A stretch of 64,000 bases of DNA. It comes from a virus. Lineage: Duplodnaviria > Caudoviricetes. The notes under the pieces are model-generated. The model saw only the letters and a program-made list of their open reading frames with translations, searched no databases and was not told the DNA's origin. Within the stretch, counting starts at the first letter, position 1. Each line of letters opens with the position of its first letter. The stretch lies in the IMG/VR virus record IMGVR_UViG_2898133256_000001, positions 1 through 64,000 of that record; one strand, given 5' to 3'. Position numbers and translations under genes: made by a program. Below are positions 33,015 to 64,000 of this stretch, in pieces.

Positions 33015-33077
33015 CCCCTCCCGCTCGTGGCGCTCGCCGCGGGCACACACCCTCGTTGTTCCCGAAGGAGCACCTCC

Positions 33078-33518
33078 ATGAACGGACCCACCGGTTTCGA
33101 CCTTTCCTCCATCCAGCACCGTGACACCTCGGTGGTGGAAATCCGCCACCCCGTCACCGCCAAGCCCGTCGGCGTCCAGGTGGAGGTGGCCAGCGCCGAC
33201 TCCTCCCTCGTCCGCGAGGCGGAGCGGGAGCTGCGGGAGCAGTCCCTGGCGCGCTACCAGCTCAACCGCGGTGCCGCGCTGACGGCGAAGGAGATGGAGT
33301 CCGACGCGCTGGAGTTGCTGGTGCGCCGCACCGTCTCCTGGAGCGGCGTGCTGGAGGGTGGCAAGCCTCTGGCCTACACCCCGGACAACGCCCGGCGCCT
33401 GTACACCTCCCTCCCGTGGCTGCGCCGCCAGGTGGACGAGGCGTGCGCGGACCGCGCCCGTTTTTTCGTGGACTCGGTGAGCAGCTCCTCGGCTTCGCTC
33501 GCCACGAATTCGGACTGA
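33078..33518 (+). CDS. Tail assembly chaperone (gpG-like)
   Basis: HPVT, W.GV, NARRL...PWLRRQVD...DRARFF. Confidence 0.85.
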   Translation: MNGPTGFDLSSIQHRDTSVVEIRHPVTAKPVGVQVEVASADSSLVREAERELREQSLARYQLNRGAALTAKEMESDALELLVRRTVSWSGVLEGGKPLAYTPDNARRLYTSLPWLRRQVDEACADRARFFVDSVSSSSASLATNSD

Positions 33519-33823
33519 GCCGGGCCCCGGAGGGCAGTGACGTCTCCCTCCGGGCCCACCTGGAGCAGGTGGCGAAGGCGACGGGGCAGGTGCCGGCGGA
33601 GCTGGTGAACGAGTACGAGCTTCCGGCGGCGCTCGCCCACGTCTGGGAGTGGTTCTGCGAGCTGAGTGGCGCGCGTGGGGCGGGCATGTACTCGCTCGCC
33701 CCCATCACCTTCCAGGACATCGCGGCATGGGCCCGGCTCACCGGGCACCGACCCTCACCCGCGGAGGTGGGGCTGCTTCGTCAGCTCGATGACGTCTTCC
33801 GCGAGGAGCTGAACCCGAAGTGA
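33461..33823 (+). CDS. gpGT-like -1 frameshift extension of tail assembly chaperone
   Basis: Slippery T TTT TTC at 33461-33467 in chaperone frame; -1 frame open to 33823 with HVWEWFCEL, PIT..DI.AW. Confidence 0.85.
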   Translation, partial: FFRGLGEQLLGFARHEFGLSRAPEGSDVSLRAHLEQVAKATGQVPAELVNEYELPAALAHVWEWFCELSGARGAGMYSLAPITFQDIAAWARLTGHRPSPAEVGLLRQLDDVFREELNPK

Positions 33824-33848
33824 CGAGGTGGCGGTGCTGCTGCAACTC

Positions 33849-34289
33849 CTAGTTCTGAAGTGGTTGCTCGGCCTTCTTCTTCTCCTCCTCGGCTCGCTCC
33901 TTGGCTGCGAGGTCCGCCATGACGGCGTCGATGCCGCGGAGCTCGGACACGGGCTTCGTCATCTCGATGCCCGTGTCTCGGTCCCGGAACCCGACGTGTG
34001 TCCATCCCTCTTTCTCCATTTCCTCCTTGCCACCGTCGTAGTTCGGCATCTCCTTCATCATCGCGGCTCGAATCTCGTTCGGGTTCGTCGAGCCGAATGG
34101 CTGGATGCGGAGGATTGTTGTGTGGTGCTTCCCCGCGGTGGCCCAGCGAAGCTGTGGGGTACCCGCAGTGTCGTTGCTCTGCTGGATCATCTGGATCCGT
34201 TTTGCTTCGAGCCGTTTTGCTTCCTCCGTGCGGAGGTCACAAGCAGCGACGAGAAGAGACACGGCCAGGAGGGCGTAGGGCGCACGCAT
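33849..34289 (-). CDS. Lipoprotein moron
   Basis: MRAPYALLAVSLLVAAC lipobox; antisense between chaperone and TMP. Confidence 0.65.
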   Translation of the reverse strand: MRAPYALLAVSLLVAACDLRTEEAKRLEAKRIQMIQQSNDTAGTPQLRWATAGKHHTTILRIQPFGSTNPNEIRAAMMKEMPNYDGGKEEMEKEGWTHVGFRDRDTGIEMTKPVSELRGIDAVMADLAAKERAEEEKKKAEQPLQN

Positions 34290-34380
34290 GGGGCAGGAGG
34301 CGAACACAGCCCGGGCCAGGTGGTCCACTGGTCGCGCGTTCAGTCGGGCGGCTACAGCCCCTCGCTGACGGGAGGCGCCC

Positions 34381-37300
34381 ATGTCTGAGGGGGTCGACCT
34401 GGCGGAGTTGTCGATTCGCATCGACACCTCGGAGTCCGCCGCCGGAGTGCAGGGACTCAACGACCTGACGAAGGCATCCGAGAAGACGGAGACGGCCACC
34501 AAAAAGGTGGAGACGGCCAGTGAGCAGTTCCAGCGCGAGATGGCGCGGATGCACAAGGAAGTGGAGGCCAACGTCAGGGCCTTCGAGGAGATGCGCAACA
34601 AGTTGAAAGATTTGGAACGAGTGACTGCGCTCGCGAAGACCTTCGACGCCGCGGCGGAGGCCGCGAAGCGGTTTCAGAAGTCGATGGAAGACACGAAGGT
34701 GTTGGACGCCTTCAACGAGAAGCTGAAGCAGTTGGAGGGCTCGGCGGGCCGCCTCACGTCCGCGTTCGGGGACACGGGCACCATCCACCGGTTCATGAAC
34801 GAGCTGAACAAGGCCTCGTCTGCCATGTCGAAGATGCAGGACGACATGCGCGCCGCGAAGTCCATCCAGGAGGTGGCGAAGGCAGCGGACCTGGCGAAGT
34901 CGCCCGTGGAACAGCTTACGAAGGGGCTCGGGGGACTCGCCGGCAACGTCATGGGCATGGTGGCAGTGGGGGCGACGTTCCGCAGCGTCACCACGGAGGC
35001 CATGGGGTTCTCCACGGCCATGGCGCAGGTGAGCACTCTGCTGGAGGACGACCAGCTCGGAATGATGGGGCAGCTCGCGGACAGCGCGAAGCGCCTGGGG
35101 GCGGAGTTCGGTCGAGGGCCCACCGACCAGGCCAAGGCGTTGTACGAAATCATGAGCGCTGGTGCGGCGGACGCGGCGAAGGCCACGGAGATGCTCGCTG
35201 TCGCCAACAAGCTCGCCATCGGCGGCGTGACGGATGTGAGCGTCGCGGCGGACGGACTCACCAGCATCATGGCGAGCTACGGAAATCAGCTCCGTAACGC
35301 CACCCAGGCCGCCGACGCCATGTTCATCTCCGCTGCTGACGGGAAGACGTCCATCGAGACCATCGCCCGGCACATCGGCAAGGTGGCGCCCATCGCGTCG
35401 CAGACGGGCGTGTCCCTTCAGGAGTTGCTCGCGGCGAATGCGGCGCTCACGAAGGCCGGTATCAAGACGGAAACGGCCATGGAGGGCGTCCGGAGCATCC
35501 TCGCCCAGGTTGCCAAGCCCTCCGGCGAGGCGGCCATCCTCGCGAAGGAGCTGGGCATCCAGTTCGACACCGCGGGGCTGAAGTCCAAGGGGCTTTCGGG
35601 CTTCCTCCAGGACATGAAAGACAAGACGGGTGGTAGCACCGAGTTGCTCGCCGCTCTCGTCGGCGGCGTCGAGGCGCTACTCCCCGCGATGACCCTCTCG
35701 GGGACGGCCTCGGCGGACTTCGCCGCGTCGCTCCGGCACATGGAGACGTCGGCGGGAAAGACGGAGACCGCCTTCCGGAAGATGGCGGAGACGCCGCAGA
35801 TGAAGGTGGACCAACTCCGAGCGCGCTTCGCCGCGCTGCGCATCGAGGTGGGCGAGGACCTGCTCGGAACCATCTCGCCCGCCATGGACGGACTGCTGCG
35901 CAACTTCGACGAGGTGACGACGGCCGCGCGCTATCTCGGCCAAGCGGTGGCGGTGATCGCCGCGGCGCGCGTGGTCTCCTGGGGCCAGGAGTGGACGAAG
36001 GCGCTGTATGAAAAGGCCGCTGCGGCGAAGAAGGCGAGGGAGGCGGTCGTCGAGGCCGCACTGACTGAGTCGCTCTACAAACGCGTCCAGGGGGAGAGCC
36101 GGGCCGAGTCGTTGAAGAACGCGATGGCCCAGCTTGAAAAGCGGCAGGCCACGCTACAGACGGCGGCGGCGCTCGAACTCTCAATGACTGCCTCCCGCAA
36201 GGCGGCCATTGAGTCCAATCTGTTGGCGCAGGCGAAGGTGCGCGAGGCGATTGCCATCGAGGGGGCGACGTTCGCCACCCGGGCGGGGTCTGCCGCGCTG
36301 GCAGCCATGGGCGGCCCCATCGGAGTGGTCGTCATCGCGCTTGGCGCGGCGGTCACCGCTTTCGCCGAGTTCGGGCGGGCCGCGGAGGAGGCCCGGGAAA
36401 AGGCAATGCAGCACGCCCAGGAGTCAGCCGCTGCGGTTGGGCGTGGCGCACAAATCGTAGTGGACCTCATGAAGCAGACAAAGGCTATGGAGGGCCAGAC
36501 GAAGGCAGTTGACGACCAGCGAAAGGCATTGGAACTGCTCGTCATTGCAAAGGAAGAGGTCGGCGCTCTTGGCGGGAAGTACCAAGACCTTCTGACGAGC
36601 GAGGTCGACACAGTTGGAGAACTTAGATCCGTCGTTCGGGCGGTCGCAGATGAGGACTTGAGGGTCGCCCAGTCAGAGGTTGCGCGACTGTCTGCCGCAG
36701 TGAAGGAGAAGCAGAACCTCATCGTCTCTGTGAATTGGAGGTGGGCTGGTCGAGGGAAGCCGTTCTCCGAGGTTCGGAAAGACTCGCGGTTCGCCGAGCA
36801 GATCGAAGAAAAGCTCGTTCCCTTGGAGAAGGAACTCGCTGTTCACCAGCAGCGCGCCGCTGAAGTCCAGAAGGCCCTCCTTTCGATAGAGGAGGCGGCG
36901 AGGGAGGAGGCCAAGCTGGCCGACAAGGTTGCCGGCGCCCATGGCCGCGTGGGAGCCGCAGCCACGAAGTCGGCTACCGAGATGATTGACGCGGCCAAGG
37001 CTAAGGATGCGGAGGCGAAGAAGGCCACGGCGTGGCTGGAGAAGCTGGAGGAGGACGTCCGGGGTATCGGGAAGACGAAGGCGGGCGCCCTCAACCAGTC
37101 GGACGAGTACAAGGCGCTCACGGAGGAGCAGAAGAAGCTCGCCGACGCGGCCATTGCGAAGCTCCAGGACGCTGAGGCCACGAAGAAGCAGGCCCAGGCG
37201 CGGGACGAGCTGGCGAAGAAGTCCGTGAACTGGCTGCAGCGCATCGAGGAAGAGGCGCGTGCCGTCGGAAAGGCGAAGGCGGAGGCGCTCAATCTCACCG

Positions 37301-59378: not shown

Positions 59379-60113
59379 ATGCCTCTCGGCACGTGGGAAC
59401 GGACGCTTCCGGTCAGAACCTCGAAGGGGTGGCCCGAGCCCGCGAAGTGGCAGCCGTGCGCGTTCTGCGGAAAGCCAGCGCATGCTCTGGCGGAGGCGCC
59501 CGGGTCGAACGACGGCAACTCCGGGACGCTGAGTAGGAACATCCTCAATGGAGCGGAGCCTGAATCGCACCCGTGGTTCACGGGCTCCTACTCGATTGCG
59601 GCGCACCACCTCATCTGCTCGGAGTCGATGAGCGGTGATGAGGACTGGGCCTGCATCTGCTGGTACTTCGGGTACGACATCAATGGACCGAAGAACGGCG
59701 TGTTCCTGCCGTCGGTGCCCTCGGTGGCGTGCGAGCTCCACGTCCCAGTTCACCGCGGCCCGCACTTCGGTGGCTGGGCCTACGACATGGACCTCTCGTA
59801 TCCCGAGGCGGTGATGGAACTACTGGAGGGCTATGCCGAGTCGGCGCGTCGCGGGCGCTACTGTGGCAATCCTTCCGGGCTGGGCAGCGACCTTGATGGG
59901 CTCAGCGGCACCATCCTGCGCAAGGTGGCGACCGGACGGTGGACCATCACCACCGACGGCCTCGACTACCAGGCTGGGGGGAACGGCTGCTCTGGGGTGA
60001 CGAGCCTCCAGGGGAAGCCGCCGCTGCCCTGTCCACGTGGGCGGCGCCACGGCTCGCGACACGGGACGACAAGGAAGCCTCTCGCTCGCCGTACGCTTCA
60101 GGTGGGGGCCTAG
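59379..60113 (+). CDS. AHH-family (HNH/EndoVII) nuclease toxin
   Basis: IAAHHLI, YDIN...NGVFLP, HRGPH...Y; start uncertain. Confidence 0.85.
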   Translation: MPLGTWERTLPVRTSKGWPEPAKWQPCAFCGKPAHALAEAPGSNDGNSGTLSRNILNGAEPESHPWFTGSYSIAAHHLICSESMSGDEDWACICWYFGYDINGPKNGVFLPSVPSVACELHVPVHRGPHFGGWAYDMDLSYPEAVMELLEGYAESARRGRYCGNPSGLGSDLDGLSGTILRKVATGRWTITTDGLDYQAGGNGCSGVTSLQGKPPLPCPRGRRHGSRHGTTRKPLARRTLQVGA

Positions 60114-60115
60114 TC

Positions 60116-60694
60116 GTGCAGCGCGAGTACTTCGTTCTGAAGCGAGCGCGCTCCCAAGAGCACCCGCTGCTTGCGTGGGCGCAGTCTGCGGCAGCGTTCC
60201 GCAAGGGCGGCAAGGTCGCAGAAGACGTGCCTGTGCAGCTCCGCCTTGGTGAGCCCGAGCCGTCCAGACCAATCATGGTCGACCACCACAGTCTGCCGGC
60301 CCCCGTCGTTTCGCCGCGACTGAAGACGGTCCTGGAGTCTGCGAAGCTCGAGGGAGTCCAGTTCGTGCCGGCGGACGTTCACGTGCGCGACTCGGTGCTC
60401 CGTTATTGGCTGGTCCACATGTGGCGGCGAATCGCCTGTATGGACCCGGAGCGCTCGGTCTACGAGCGGTCGCCGAGCGGCGCCACGCTGATGGGATTGG
60501 ACCGCCTGGTGCTCGACGAGTCTGTTCTCGGCGACATCCCGGTGGAAGAGCGACTGGCCTTCCGTCTCGACGAAGCGGTTGTCCACCTCTTCCATCGTTC
60601 GGTGGTGGAGCAAGTGCTTTCGATGTCGCCTCCACCGGAGGGGCTGCGGTTCATCCCGGTGGAAGAGTGGAACGACTCCTCGGCATTCCGGTGA
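60116..60694 (+). CDS. Imm11/DUF1629-like immunity protein
   Basis: VVSPRLK.VL, GVQFVP, Y......I.C.D.ERS, LVLDE, FRL, GLRFIPV; 2 nt after toxin. Confidence 0.8.
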   Translation: MQREYFVLKRARSQEHPLLAWAQSAAAFRKGGKVAEDVPVQLRLGEPEPSRPIMVDHHSLPAPVVSPRLKTVLESAKLEGVQFVPADVHVRDSVLRYWLVHMWRRIACMDPERSVYERSPSGATLMGLDRLVLDESVLGDIPVEERLAFRLDEAVVHLFHRSVVEQVLSMSPPPEGLRFIPVEEWNDSSAFR

Positions 60695-60956: not shown

Positions 60957-60991
60957 GCGGGGGCTCGGACAGCATGCGCCGTGCCGGGCGA

Positions 60992-61020
60992 CGGACGCTG
61001 TCCGCACGGGCACGGACCAT
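60992..61020 (+). promoter_or_regulatory. Phage promoter-like motif, copy before lysis cassette
   Basis: CGGACGCTGTCC-N10-GGACCAT, 8 nt before ATG 61029. Confidence 0.55.
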
Positions 61021-61028
61021 GCCGTCGC

Positions 61029-61619
61029 ATGTCCCCCACGCCCCACCGCTCCCCCCTCCGCGAGGACGTCGTCAGGCTCGACGAGAAGCTGGAGGCCGTC
61101 GCCCTCCGCACCACGGAGAAGCTGGAGTCCGTTGGCCTGCGCTCCGACGAGGCGAAGCGCGCTGCTGAGCGGTACGCCGTCGACACGCACCGCCTCATCG
61201 AGGGCGTACGCGACGAGCTGCGTGCGCTCGCCGAGCGAGTGGCGACTGCCGAGCAGGTCCGACGCCTTGAGGAGCATGTGCGCCGGGTGGACGAGCGCGT
61301 GGACAGCGTCGACAGGCGCGTCACCGAGCAGAAGTCCGTCGTCGAGATGGTGCCCAAGCTCGTCGAGCGCATGGACGAGTTGGAAGAGCGGCTCGGCGCC
61401 CAGGACTCGCTGGTGAAGTCCATCCCCGACCTGTCCGCGCGCATGACAGGTGGCGAGCACCGCGCCTCGCGCATAGCGGGCGCCCTCTGGGTGGTGGGCG
61501 CTCTCGTCGCGGTGCTGGGGCTGGCGGGGCTGCGCGAGTTGGGGCGCTGGTTCGTCCAGGTCGCTCCGCCTGTCGTCCACGTCGAGGAGCCCGCCATCCC
61601 GCCCCGGCGCCGTCAGTGA
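61029..61619 (+). CDS. Coiled-coil protein with C-terminal TM (holin-like)
   Basis: Heptad repeats then IAGALWVVGALVAVLGL; precedes endolysin. Confidence 0.65.
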   Translation: MSPTPHRSPLREDVVRLDEKLEAVALRTTEKLESVGLRSDEAKRAAERYAVDTHRLIEGVRDELRALAERVATAEQVRRLEEHVRRVDERVDSVDRRVTEQKSVVEMVPKLVERMDELEERLGAQDSLVKSIPDLSARMTGGEHRASRIAGALWVVGALVAVLGLAGLRELGRWFVQVAPPVVHVEEPAIPPRRRQ

Positions 61620-61647: not shown

Positions 61648-62100
61648 ATGTCCGCCCAGCGCAATGCCTTCCTCGTCGCCGTCCTCTCGCAGATGCATGC
61701 GCCCTACCGGTGGAACGGCAAGGGCGAGCGCGACAGCACCACCGGCCAGCGCGTCTTCGACTGTTCGGGGTTGGTCACCTGGGCATTCCGCGAAGCGGGC
61801 GGCCCAGACTGGCGCGCCCACGCCAACACCGACGTCCTGTGGGCGCGGTGTGCGGTCGTGCCGGAGGCGGAGCTGCTCCCCGGCGACCTGGTGCTGTACC
61901 ACCGCAAGGGCGACCCCACCGACGCGGAGCACGTCATGGTTCACGTGGGCGGAGGCGTGGTGGTGGGCGCCTCCGGAGGCGGGAGCACGACGCTCACCCT
62001 GGCCGACGCCGCCAAGGCCAGGGCGTACGTGAAGACGTTCTCCAGTCTCGACTACCGCGCTCGTCGCATGGGTATCCGACGCCTGCCGTTCCGGCCGTGA
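61648..62100 (+). CDS. NlpC/P60 endopeptidase, probable endolysin
   Basis: PYRWNG, FDCSGLV, PGDLVLY, HVM. Confidence 0.88.
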   Translation: MSAQRNAFLVAVLSQMHAPYRWNGKGERDSTTGQRVFDCSGLVTWAFREAGGPDWRAHANTDVLWARCAVVPEAELLPGDLVLYHRKGDPTDAEHVMVHVGGGVVVGASGGGSTTLTLADAAKARAYVKTFSSLDYRARRMGIRRLPFRP

Positions 62101-62170: not shown

Positions 62171-62791
62171 ATGAAGAAGCTGTTCATCTTCGCCGCCCTC
62201 GCGGCCGTCCTCACCTCGCCCACGGCGCTGGCGGAGGCGGCCACCAGCCCGCCCGAGCCCTCGCTGTCGTCTGTTGTCTCATCCATCCTCGTCAGCGTGG
62301 TGCCGGTGCTGGCGACCGCGCTGGCCGCTCTCATTGTCTCGGGGCTCACCGGGCTCACGAGGAAGTTCCAAGCCCAGGCCGGGGAGTCGAAGCTCGCGCT
62401 CGTCGCGGCCCGCGTCAGCATGCTGGCCGAGGGCATCGTCCGGGACATCGAAGTCACCATGAAGCCGAAGCTCGAGGCTGCGGCGGCGGACGGTGAGCTG
62501 ACCCCGGCCGAGTTCCAGCAGCTCAAGGATGAAGCGCTGCAACGGCTGTTGAAGTCCCTGGGCGACCGTGGCCTCGCGGAGCTGCAGCAGGTCCTCCAGC
62601 TCTCGGCGGGCAGCGTGGGCTTGTTCCTGAGTGGCCTCATCGAGGCGGCCCTCGACAAGATGAAGGCCGGCCGTGGTGGTTCCACCGTGGACGACGTGAT
62701 GACGGCCGCGCTGTCGCTCGGTGCCATCGGCAGCTCGGCTGCGCTCGCCCCGGCGGTGGCGGCGGTCCCTCAGACGCCCCGCGGCTCGTAG
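62171..62791 (+). CDS. Lysis-region membrane protein (signal-like segment + TM + helical domain)
   Basis: GGAG RBS; DGELT..E...LK..A, IEAA..K as in holin-associated proteins. Confidence 0.7.
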   Translation: MKKLFIFAALAAVLTSPTALAEAATSPPEPSLSSVVSSILVSVVPVLATALAALIVSGLTGLTRKFQAQAGESKLALVAARVSMLAEGIVRDIEVTMKPKLEAAAADGELTPAEFQQLKDEALQRLLKSLGDRGLAELQQVLQLSAGSVGLFLSGLIEAALDKMKAGRGGSTVDDVMTAALSLGAIGSSAALAPAVAAVPQTPRGS

Positions 62792-63003
62792 TCGCCGCGG
62801 GGCTCTCCCGTGTTCTCGCTGACGTGCCGGTGAGGACGGGTTACCTGGAGGCGCAGGCCGGTGCTTCCTCCCTCACCGGCGCGTACGCGCGGCTGGAAGC
62901 GGGCGCGAGGTTGAGTCCGGACCTGGGCCTCTTCGCGTTCGGGGAAGCGAACCAGCGCGAGCAGATGGCTGGCGCTGGCGTCCGGTGGACGTTCGGCTGG
63001 TAG
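62765..63003 (+). other. Putative -1 frameshift extension encoding amphipathic beta strands
   Basis: GTC CCT, 5-nt spacer, perfect 10-bp stem 62776-62803; -1 frame ends GAGVRWTFGW-stop. Confidence 0.55.
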
Positions 63004-63008
63004 GGCAC

Positions 63009-63040
63009 ACGGCCCGCTCCTGAGCACCGGGGCGGGCCGT
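63009..63040. terminator. GC-rich hairpin between convergent genes
   Basis: ACGGCCCGCTCC/GGGGCGGGCCGT stem, no U-tract. Confidence 0.5.
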
Positions 63041-63046
63041 CGCATG

Positions 63047-63496
63047 TCACGGTGAGGATGGCGGCGCGCAGAACAGAGGCTCGGAAGGTGGAGGCTGCGC
63101 TGGCGCAGGAGTTTCGGTCGAAGCACCCGCACCGCACTTCGGCACGAATAGCGGGAACAGCGTGGCTGCTAGGCTGACCACACTCAAAAGCAGTCCAACG
63201 ATGGTTCCGACATGGGTCCAGATCTGGCCTCGCTTGTCCCGGCGGGAGGCTAGCTCCTGGTCGATTTGCTTAGCGACCTCGCCAATCGCATCGACCACGC
63301 GGCGCCTCGTTTCCACGAGAACCTTGTCATACTCCCAGGGTCTGTATCCCTGGGCCGCGGTGCGGTCACGAGCAACTGATGCCGCCAGTGCGCTCAGATC
63401 TGCGTCGGTGATTGACGAAAGGTTTGCGCCCGGCGACGTCCCAAGGTACCGGCGCTTGATGTCCTCGTACCCAAGTTCGCTGTTCCTGTCGCTCAT
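63047..63496 (-). CDS. Hypothetical protein with C-terminal TM (moron)
   Basis: Lower GC; IVGLLLSVVSLAATLFPLF. Confidence 0.55.
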   Translation of the reverse strand: MSDRNSELGYEDIKRRYLGTSPGANLSSITDADLSALAASVARDRTAAQGYRPWEYDKVLVETRRRVVDAIGEVAKQIDQELASRRDKRGQIWTHVGTIVGLLLSVVSLAATLFPLFVPKCGAGASTETPAPAQPPPSEPLFCAPPSSP

Positions 63497-63704
63497 CAAC
63501 AGGCGACCGTAACACTGACCACACCGATGTCTAGGCACGTCCTCCGCTGGCGGGCAGTGGGTTTTCAGCCGATGCGCTGAACGCCACGGAGCGCATGCCA
63601 TCAGCCCCTGAGCACCAGTGCGGCCGTTAGAATTTCGGCCTGATTTGTGTACCGCGTTTCGATTTGTGTACCGGCCCGGAGTCTTTGTACACGATGCCGC
63701 CCCC

Positions 63705-64000
63705 CTACGCGGGCCGCACCCAGCGCCAGGCACCGTGCTGGGCGATGTACACCCACTTCACGAGCATTGCCTCCGGGCCGTAGCGCTGGCGGCGCAGGTG
63801 GCCACGCACGGACGTCTCCGACGGGATGAGCCCGGTGGCATGGGCAGACGCCGGCACAACTCCGGCCGCCTCCCCGAGCGCGCCGTCCAGGTAGACGTTG
63901 GAGACGGCGAGCCCCTTGGGATTGTCGCGCTGGCGCCCCGCCTCCACACGTAGCGGCGAGGCCTCCGCCTCGACGAGCAGCGCGTAAACGATTGCGAAAC
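63705..64000 (-). CDS. 3' end of hypothetical protein running off the window
   Basis: Frame open to edge; VRGHLRRQRYGP...KWVYI..H motif. Confidence 0.55.
   Translation of the reverse strand, partial: FAIVYALLVEAEASPLRVEAGRQRDNPKGLAVSNVYLDGALGEAAGVVPASAHATGLIPSETSVRGHLRRQRYGPEAMLVKWVYIAQHGAWRWVRPA

Follow-up and report, generated by a model that had tools for sequence, protein, structure and literature searches.

The junction at the end of a holin-like gene

The window analysed here, a whole stretch of 64,000 nucleotides (nt) of DNA (positions 1 to 64,000 of the IMG/VR record IMGVR_UViG_2898133256_000001), is a siphovirus-type prophage within an 11.4-Mb high-GC myxobacterial genome (Myxococcus). 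The last gene of its putative lysis cassette (62171-62791, + strand, taken from the list of open reading frames, ORFs) encodes a holin-like membrane protein of 206 amino acids (aa). Its 3' part is overlapped by a -1 frame that is open from 62533 to 63003 and has no ATG, GTG or TTG in 62533-62823, the first of these codons being a GTG at 62824. We consider it likely that this gene carries a programmed -1 frameshift signal, by which a tail resembling the anchor of trimeric autotransporters would be added to the membrane protein.

At the junction, the codons GTC CCT (62765-62770) are followed by a 5-nt spacer, CAGAC (62771-62775), and by a perfect 10-bp GC stem formed by GCCCCGCGGC (62776-62785) and GCCGCGGGGC (62794-62803), whose 8-nt loop contains the 0-frame stop codon TAG (62789-62791). 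This putative stimulatory hairpin (62776-62803, + strand) begins 5 nt after the shift site, and RNA folding returned its 10-bp stem in both the minimum-free-energy and the centroid structures. The proposed shift site is C_CCU (62767-62770, + strand), where the tRNA-Pro placed on CCU (62768-62770) would re-pair with CCC (62767-62769). From here the -1 frame encodes a tail of 78 codons, counted from CCC, plus a stop codon (62767-63003, + strand), recognised by its identity among relatives and by its substitution pattern. The predicted long isoform would have 277 aa, i.e., residues 1-200 of the 0 frame and 77 tail residues, with the junction ...AAVP-SDAPR..., and the short isoform is the 206-aa product of the 0 frame.

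Relatives were collected by six-frame searches of related genomes, IMG/VR and metagenomes, yielding more than 80 distinct junctions, and the 69 distinct homologous junctions with an intact upstream gene served as the comparison set (single loci are named below by an L and a number). The minimal -1 shift site is a Z_ZZN tetranucleotide (review PMC5009743), and the frame changes on such a tetranucleotide at all 69 junctions: 64 read CCCT, four CCCC and one TTTT. The TTTT case (L113, U_UUU) lies at the position homologous to C_CCU, and Phe replaces Pro in its product. The CCC columns are invariant in the junction alignment. The junctions retain the T after CCC even though no more than 10% of the Pro codons of the prophage are CCT, and this T obliges the -1 frame to take codons such as TTA, which is used for none of the 673 Leu codons of the prophage. 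The 0-frame stop stands one codon after the slip codon (CCT TAG or TGA) in 21 loci and 6-8 codons after it, in the hairpin, in 45, together 66 of the 69, so that the 0-frame residues after the Pro appear to be dispensable. Since the same layout recurs at 69 distinct junctions in other genomes, the arrangement is far beyond chance.

The hairpin was compared in the same way. Pairing holds in 91.7% of the cells of the hairpin alignment, and sliding the 3' partner lowers the figure to 47-55%. Five pairs have changed on both sides. A compensatory stem, GCCCCUCGC/GCGAGGGGC, is present in L011 and L059, and different stems starting 5-6 nt after the site are found in L064, L113, L118, L122 and L123. 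Two other roles for these elements were considered and rejected: the hairpin is not followed by the T run of an intrinsic terminator, and transcriptional slippage would need a much longer run than three C. Upstream of the junction, many loci contain a Shine-Dalgarno-like GG(T/A)GG, a candidate stimulator that is inseparable from the coding of Ala, Gly and Val.

Slippage and its rate are what we infer from this layout. As the ribosome decodes CCU (62768-62770), a rare Pro codon, the GC hairpin 5 nt further on would resist unwinding, and in a fraction of the ribosomes the tRNA-Pro would slip back onto CCC, so that these ribosomes would continue in the -1 frame and produce the 277-aa isoform. The remaining ribosomes would stop within six codons and release the 206-aa form. 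To judge from the comparison of sequences, the slippage very probably takes place at the conserved C-CCU.

Several points weigh against this frameshift. A classical X_XXY_YYZ heptamer is absent at the junctions: the codon before CCU varies (GUC, UCC, GGC, CGC and others) and cannot re-pair in most loci, so the efficiency of the shift could be low. No published measurement of C_CCU slippage was found in the literature. A hairpin at the usual spacing is not seen in L111 and L078, and the shift site of L112 and L077 is itself part of the stem. In addition, two distant relatives read CCC_TTG_A, where the TTG overlaps the stop codon and could be a coupled restart codon, and a few copies of the tail (L117, L116 and L105) have no upstream gene.

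Coding in the -1 frame and its lack of an independent start

The tail has a length of 76-79 codons at nearly all complete junctions, and of exactly 78 at most of them. Its identity among relatives is 69-92%, also in loci whose upstream proteins share no more than about 30%; in L014 and L012, for instance, the tails share 92 and 83% identity versus 33% for the body in both cases. Nucleotide diversity was calculated in 30-nt bins for 11 alignable loci that have the same type of upstream protein (type A). In every bin from -300 to -30 the third positions of the 0 frame are the most diverse, in the bin just before CCC the three codon positions are near-equal, and in every bin downstream of CCC the third positions of the -1 frame are the most diverse. 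The column entropies over 39 loci agree with a switch of frame at CCC.

The tail might also be a separate small protein, whose synthesis would restart after the 0-frame stop at GTG 62824, at another GTG or TTG or at a non-canonical codon, the hairpin only regulating the coupling. Public records do annotate hypothetical proteins of 56-70 aa, and the database family of the tail comprises 268 clusters, nearly all annotated as orphans of 47-110 aa whose called starts vary. In most loci some GTG lies 8-21 codons away from the junction, but the candidate starts of the -1 frame lie at +8, +15, +19 or +21 codons depending on the locus and none of them is universal; seven loci, including L053 and L011, have no ATG, GTG or TTG at all from -30 to +25 codons. 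GTG 62824 would open an ORF of 59 codons, yet no GGAGG-like Shine-Dalgarno sequence is visible before it by eye, and it is replaced by GTC or GTA in L014, L004, L002 and L019. The overlapping TTG of the two distant relatives mentioned above would suit a restart, as would the GTG of L117, which directly follows an in-frame stop with no holin-like gene upstream. On the other side, the coding pattern of the -1 frame already appears upstream of every candidate start, and the same is true of a helix predicted by AlphaFold2 (AF2) for tail residues 4-19 (62776-62823, + strand), wholly upstream of GTG 62824, in which G12 and L13 are invariant in 44 sequences. This position of the helix counts against an independently started tail, and a separate protein would moreover leave the near-invariant CCC-T unexplained. 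We therefore regard a separate tail as improbable and the programmed frameshift as the better explanation.

An ancestral in-frame gene hit by a 1-nt change, the -1 ORF being a pseudogene remnant or simply a chance open frame, has also been considered. Long frames do open by chance at about 70% GC, and some copies are broken or truncated, but the same frame relation is found at the 69 distinct junctions, from several genera and metagenomes, with the tail intact in nearly all of them and under strong purifying selection that leaves variation only at third positions. A search for longer proteins and an exhaustive profile search both failed to reveal an in-frame fusion of the tail to a complete body; one longer protein from the fusion search was discarded as a spurious upstream extension. 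An ancestor-like in-frame form is thus missing, the sole exception being a deletion variant, and we consider decay extremely improbable.

The variant in question, P0076 (159 aa, L076:230-709), comes from a metagenome and consists of the membrane helix, the beginning of a type-A body and the tail, all in one frame. The fusion is an internal deletion, joined three codons before CCC, that has kept CCCT and the hairpin. It may be a natural fused variant or an assembly artefact, and we give it little weight, since it is found on a single short contig. Partial second copies of the tail are present at L061 (G242:C1:2507951-2508118), L060 (G227:C144:28307-28471), L074 (G009:C1:5977056-5977220) and L073 (G021:C1:9167123-9167320). 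They begin at tail residue 13 (L073) or 23-25 (L061, L060 and L074), have unrelated sequence ahead, and either stand by themselves or follow a complete holin-tail unit at a distance of 0.6-2 kb; earlier prophages, or recombination at the prophage end, may have left them behind. Extra frame breaks in the tail or the body occur in L007/L020 (G001:C1267) and L005 (G031:C60), all from fragmented draft assemblies, where they may reflect decay or sequencing errors.

A first-pass annotation of the window, made from its sequence alone, had proposed the -1 frameshift, and its description of GTC CCT, the stem, the stop codon in the loop, the open -1 frame and a GTG 62824 without Shine-Dalgarno sequence is correct in sequence and in position. 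The proposal gains from the comparison of homologues, in which the CCCT and the hairpin are kept, the substitutions switch frame and no start is conserved, the GTG that it had named as the alternative being altered or absent in many loci. The junction peptide that it had predicted, VPSDAPR, belongs to the junction ...AAVP-SDAPR, where conservation changes frame. Its reservation that the site is not a classic heptamer was justified, the codon before CCU being mostly unable to re-pair.

The tail, its carrier and the lysis cassette

The structure of the tail was modelled with AF2 on an alignment of 44 tails. The model shows one helix and four strands with a predicted local distance difference test (pLDDT) score of 90. 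The four amphipathic beta strands comprise tail residues 24-34, 38-50, 53-62 and 66-74 (62836-62988, + strand), and the tail ends in ...RWTFGW. Small hydrophobic residues alternate with charged ones in the strands, the C-terminal residue is W or F in most of the tails and representatives inspected and L in some, and the conserved tail is devoid of Cys. A Foldseek search against PDB gave as its top four matches three entries of the Hia anchor and the AtaA anchor (E 3e-3 to 4e-2, probability 1.00), and the top six of VIA-align include Hia (Z 6.1), AtaA (Z 5.9) and YadA (Z 5.7), aligned over 58-61 residues with a root-mean-square deviation of 2.5-3.0 Å. Among the predicted viral structures of BFVD, 12 of the top 14 matches cover the full length, with E values from 3e-4 and a Foldseek probability of 1.00; seven of these 12 are named YadA-like anchor proteins and three adhesins, these ten being phage proteins. 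The anchor of a trimeric autotransporter is a 12-strand barrel built from three chains, and the tail would by analogy trimerise into a small barrel.

Other searches argue against assigning the tail to this family. A Pfam search of the 44 tails with E values up to 10 gave no match, the YadA_anchor profile included, and PF03895 (YadA_anchor), searched over the whole genome, found nothing at the tail locus. A Z score of about 6 is moderate for so small a domain. The tail profile had no match among PDB chains, nor did a search against sequenced phages yield any, and the ESM Atlas returned unnamed clusters only, plus a weak DUF7840/OMP-like lead. As far as the model goes, the likeness to the autotransporter anchor is one of fold, or of very remote kinship, and not a demonstrated family membership.

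The 206-aa protein that would carry the tail begins with a signal peptide that looks cleavable (residues 1-23), which is followed by a membrane helix at about residues 36-63, a helical body and a linker rich in Ala and Gly. Its AF2 model is all-helical, with five helices and a pLDDT of 63. Its matches to holins are weak (phrog_36209, E 1.1e-3; Phage_holin_6_1, PF09682, E 0.068), although the relative in L123 matches phrog_36209 with an E value of 4.2e-6. By profile it falls short of a holin, the PF09682 score of 14 bits lying under the curated cut-off of 24.9; by context it resembles one, being a small membrane protein with one membrane helix after a signal peptide, encoded beside an endolysin.

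The upstream proteins of the relatives belong to at least three sequence types, which have in common an N-terminal membrane helix, usually with a signal peptide ahead. At the myxococcal loci, all three body types share the linker ..LGAIGSxAALAP..AVP just before the junction. Some type-B bodies (L033, L039 and L071) contain a repeated signal-peptide-like segment before the membrane helix (..APLALA.. then ..APVALA..APVLLAQ..), which looks like a duplicated N-terminal export region.

The membrane topology was predicted from the charges that flank the helix in 26 relatives. The N-side carries a net charge of -2 to +1 and the C-side one of +1 to +4, or 0 in L013. The N-side is fixed as periplasmic by the members with a signal peptide, and the members without one have acidic or neutral N-termini. 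Because of this charge bias, the helix is predicted to be N-out/C-in, and the body and the tail to be cytoplasmic, in 26 of the 26 relatives. The weakly hydrophobic linker of the myxococcal members might conceivably span the membrane, but distant members lack it. A third, weakly hydrophobic segment, ..LGAIGSSAALAPAVAAV.., was tried as a membrane helix that would make the tail periplasmic, and was rejected as a general answer, L113, L123, L064 and L078 having no hydrophobic linker. The predicted arrangement is not that of a Sec-exported passenger ahead of an anchor, given that the signal peptide is followed by a 28-residue hydrophobic helix and the rest is predicted to be cytoplasmic. It is not that of an inner-membrane spanin either, i.e., an N-in/C-out helix with a periplasmic coiled coil and a match to PF03245.

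Three genes on the + strand make up the putative lysis cassette. The first (60981-61619) encodes a coiled-coil protein with a C-terminal membrane helix, XhlA/hemolysin-like, with a weak match to phrog_937 'hemolysin' (E 1.6e-3) and coiled-coil Pfam matches; a homologue is also present upstream in L012. This product recalls XhlA of the Bacillus PBSX lysis cassette and could be the real holin partner. The second (61648-62100) encodes an NlpC/P60 peptidoglycan endopeptidase (PF00877, E 4.9e-13) without signal peptide, which is likely the endolysin, and a gene of this kind immediately precedes the holin-like gene in about 30 related loci, some of them distant (36-37% identity). The third is the gene of the 206-aa protein. 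After the stop codon of the tail, a 9-bp inverted repeat read from the sequence (about 63009-63040, + strand) might form a hairpin at the end of the operon; it has no T run and was not called by the terminator scan.

Elsewhere in the window, PHROG matches identify the portal, major head, tail chaperone, tape measure and J-like fibre proteins. The tail assembly chaperone gene (phrog_313, 33027-34381) immediately precedes that of the tape measure protein, and a classical G/GT -1 frameshift is expected there. Near the right end, between the tail-fibre genes and the lysis genes, the gene of an AHH-family nuclease (PF14412, E 1e-9) and that of an Imm11 immunity protein (PF07791, E 2.8e-11) overlap each other, both within 59379-60694, and the lysis cassette follows this pair. 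Directly after the cassette there is an ORF of 228 aa on the - strand (63047-63733) with no Pfam or PHROG match; the GC content seems by eye to drop near it, which might mark the end of the prophage.

Possible role in lysis and comparison with known systems

We put forward tentatively, and by analogy, that the long isoform may break the outer membrane in place of a spanin. The lesion made by the holin would open and the NlpC/P60 enzyme would remove the wall, after which the tail, a cytoplasmic product held at the inner membrane by its carrier, could reach the outer membrane, insert into it or perturb it, and so do the job of a spanin or disruptin. The endolysin has no signal peptide and would therefore need a holin that makes large holes, and a tail located in the cytoplasm would likewise need the holin lesion to arrive at the outer membrane. 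This role is favoured because no lipobox ORF is found on the + strand of 58.6-63.2 kb, no match to the Rz family PF03245 is found across the genome, and the tail is far better conserved than its carriers, which fits a target in the host. The predicted cytoplasmic location of body and tail weighs against it, and so does the fact that autotransporter anchors normally require Sec export and the BAM complex (beta-barrel assembly machinery).

That same location invites another role for a genuinely frameshifted tail, one at the inner membrane or in the cytoplasm, as an antiholin, a trigger form or a lethal inner-membrane pore, with a fixed ratio of isoforms timing lysis. A frameshift does give a fixed ratio, which suits a timing device, and in the lambda holin pair S105/S107 the ratio of isoforms sets the timing of lysis; besides, the distant relatives have no hydrophobic linker that would carry the tail across the membrane. 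However, one would expect a regulator to change together with the body that it regulates, and the tails share 70-92% identity, against about 30% for the three types of body. The C-terminal aromatic residue and the strand pattern are of the outer-membrane barrel type, and the cassette has no recognisable gene for disrupting the outer membrane. We find such an inner-membrane role rather unlikely, but nearly as likely as the outer-membrane role.

The first-pass annotation had compared the tail with trimeric autotransporter anchors, a likeness on which the structure prediction and two fold searches now agree. It had also seen the hairpin-like repeat near 63009, which is present, and had recognised no canonical i-spanin/o-spanin pair, as borne out by the searches for a lipobox and for PF03245. 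Its suggestion that the long isoform may connect the two membranes has found no support. The predicted topology places the tail in the cytoplasm, and its own warning that the C-terminus might be left there is borne out by the charge bias in all 26 relatives examined.

If the outer-membrane role is true, one gene would supply the first and the last steps of Gram-negative lysis, the ribosome would fix their ratio, and a barrel module made in the cytoplasm would enter a membrane without Sec. It is somewhat doubtful that the long isoform goes as far as representing a new class of outer-membrane-breaching protein, in which a holin-type protein carries a recoded, self-assembling barrel that is freed when the holin fires. 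In the literature searched on holins with frameshifting, on spanins and disruptin with beta barrels, and on phage YadA-like anchors, we found nothing like this lysis-protein design. By what route a barrel anchor synthesised in the cytoplasm would come into contact with a membrane is the question that it raises, and Myxococcus xanthus offers a genetically tractable host. For annotation, the 268 clusters filed as tiny orphans are probably the C-termini of longer proteins. For recoding, high-GC bacteria and their phages would contain a large and conserved family of -1 frameshifts, wholly missing from annotations and based on a tRNA-Pro tetranucleotide and a simple hairpin, whose natural variants (C_CCU, C_CCC, U_UUU, differing stems, the stop codon adjacent or not) are a ready-made mutational series.

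Known -1 frameshifts of bacteria and phages include dnaX, with A_AAA_AAG and a hairpin, IS911/IS1222, the G/GT tail chaperones and T7 gene 10A/10B. The junction described here is like them in having a shift-prone site, a short spacer and a stable 3' hairpin, conserved across relatives, and a startless -1 ORF that overlaps the end of the 0 frame, the two predicted products sharing their N-terminus. As in G/GT and 10A/10B, the shifted product would be the longer one. It differs in that the proposed site is the tetranucleotide C_CCU read by tRNA-Pro, and not a Lys or Phe heptamer, in that the 0-frame stop abuts the slip codon in 21 loci, and in that it lies in a lysis gene; a frameshift of this kind in a holin or lysis cassette was not found in the literature searched.

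With the type Vc anchors (YadA, Hia, AtaA; PF03895) and the YadA-like anchors of phages, the modelled tail shares a helix followed by four strands of 9-13 residues, a charged lumen face, an Ala/Leu lipid face and a C-terminal aromatic residue. Unlike them, it does not match PF03895, is attached to a predicted cytoplasmic body behind a stop-transfer helix, and would be reached by frameshifting.

The carrier resembles the LL-H holins (PF09682; phrog_36209, phrog_13712) in its N-terminal membrane helix, its helical soluble body, the adjacent endolysin and the weak but recurrent profile matches. It departs from them in that all the Pfam scores are under the cut-off, that many members have an added signal peptide and that there are at least three body types.

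The cassette may represent a third way through the outer membrane, with an outer-membrane-type barrel module on a holin-like protein in a setting without spanin; a preprint (10.1101/515445) puts the phages without an identifiable spanin gene at about 15%. The gene differs from spanins in having no lipobox and no match to PF03245, a predicted N-out/C-in helix and a beta anchor in place of a lipid anchor. Like the lambda Rz/Rz1 pair, it has two reading frames that share DNA, and it closes a holin-endolysin cassette in which there is no other candidate for breaching the outer membrane. Like the unimolecular spanin T1 gp11, its predicted long product would combine one inner-membrane helix with one outer-membrane-type element. 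The tail is neither cationic nor alpha-helical, unlike the disruptin gp28 of phiKT (10.1101/515445), but as in the case of gp28 it would be made in the cytoplasm and would be at the outer membrane only after the holin has acted.

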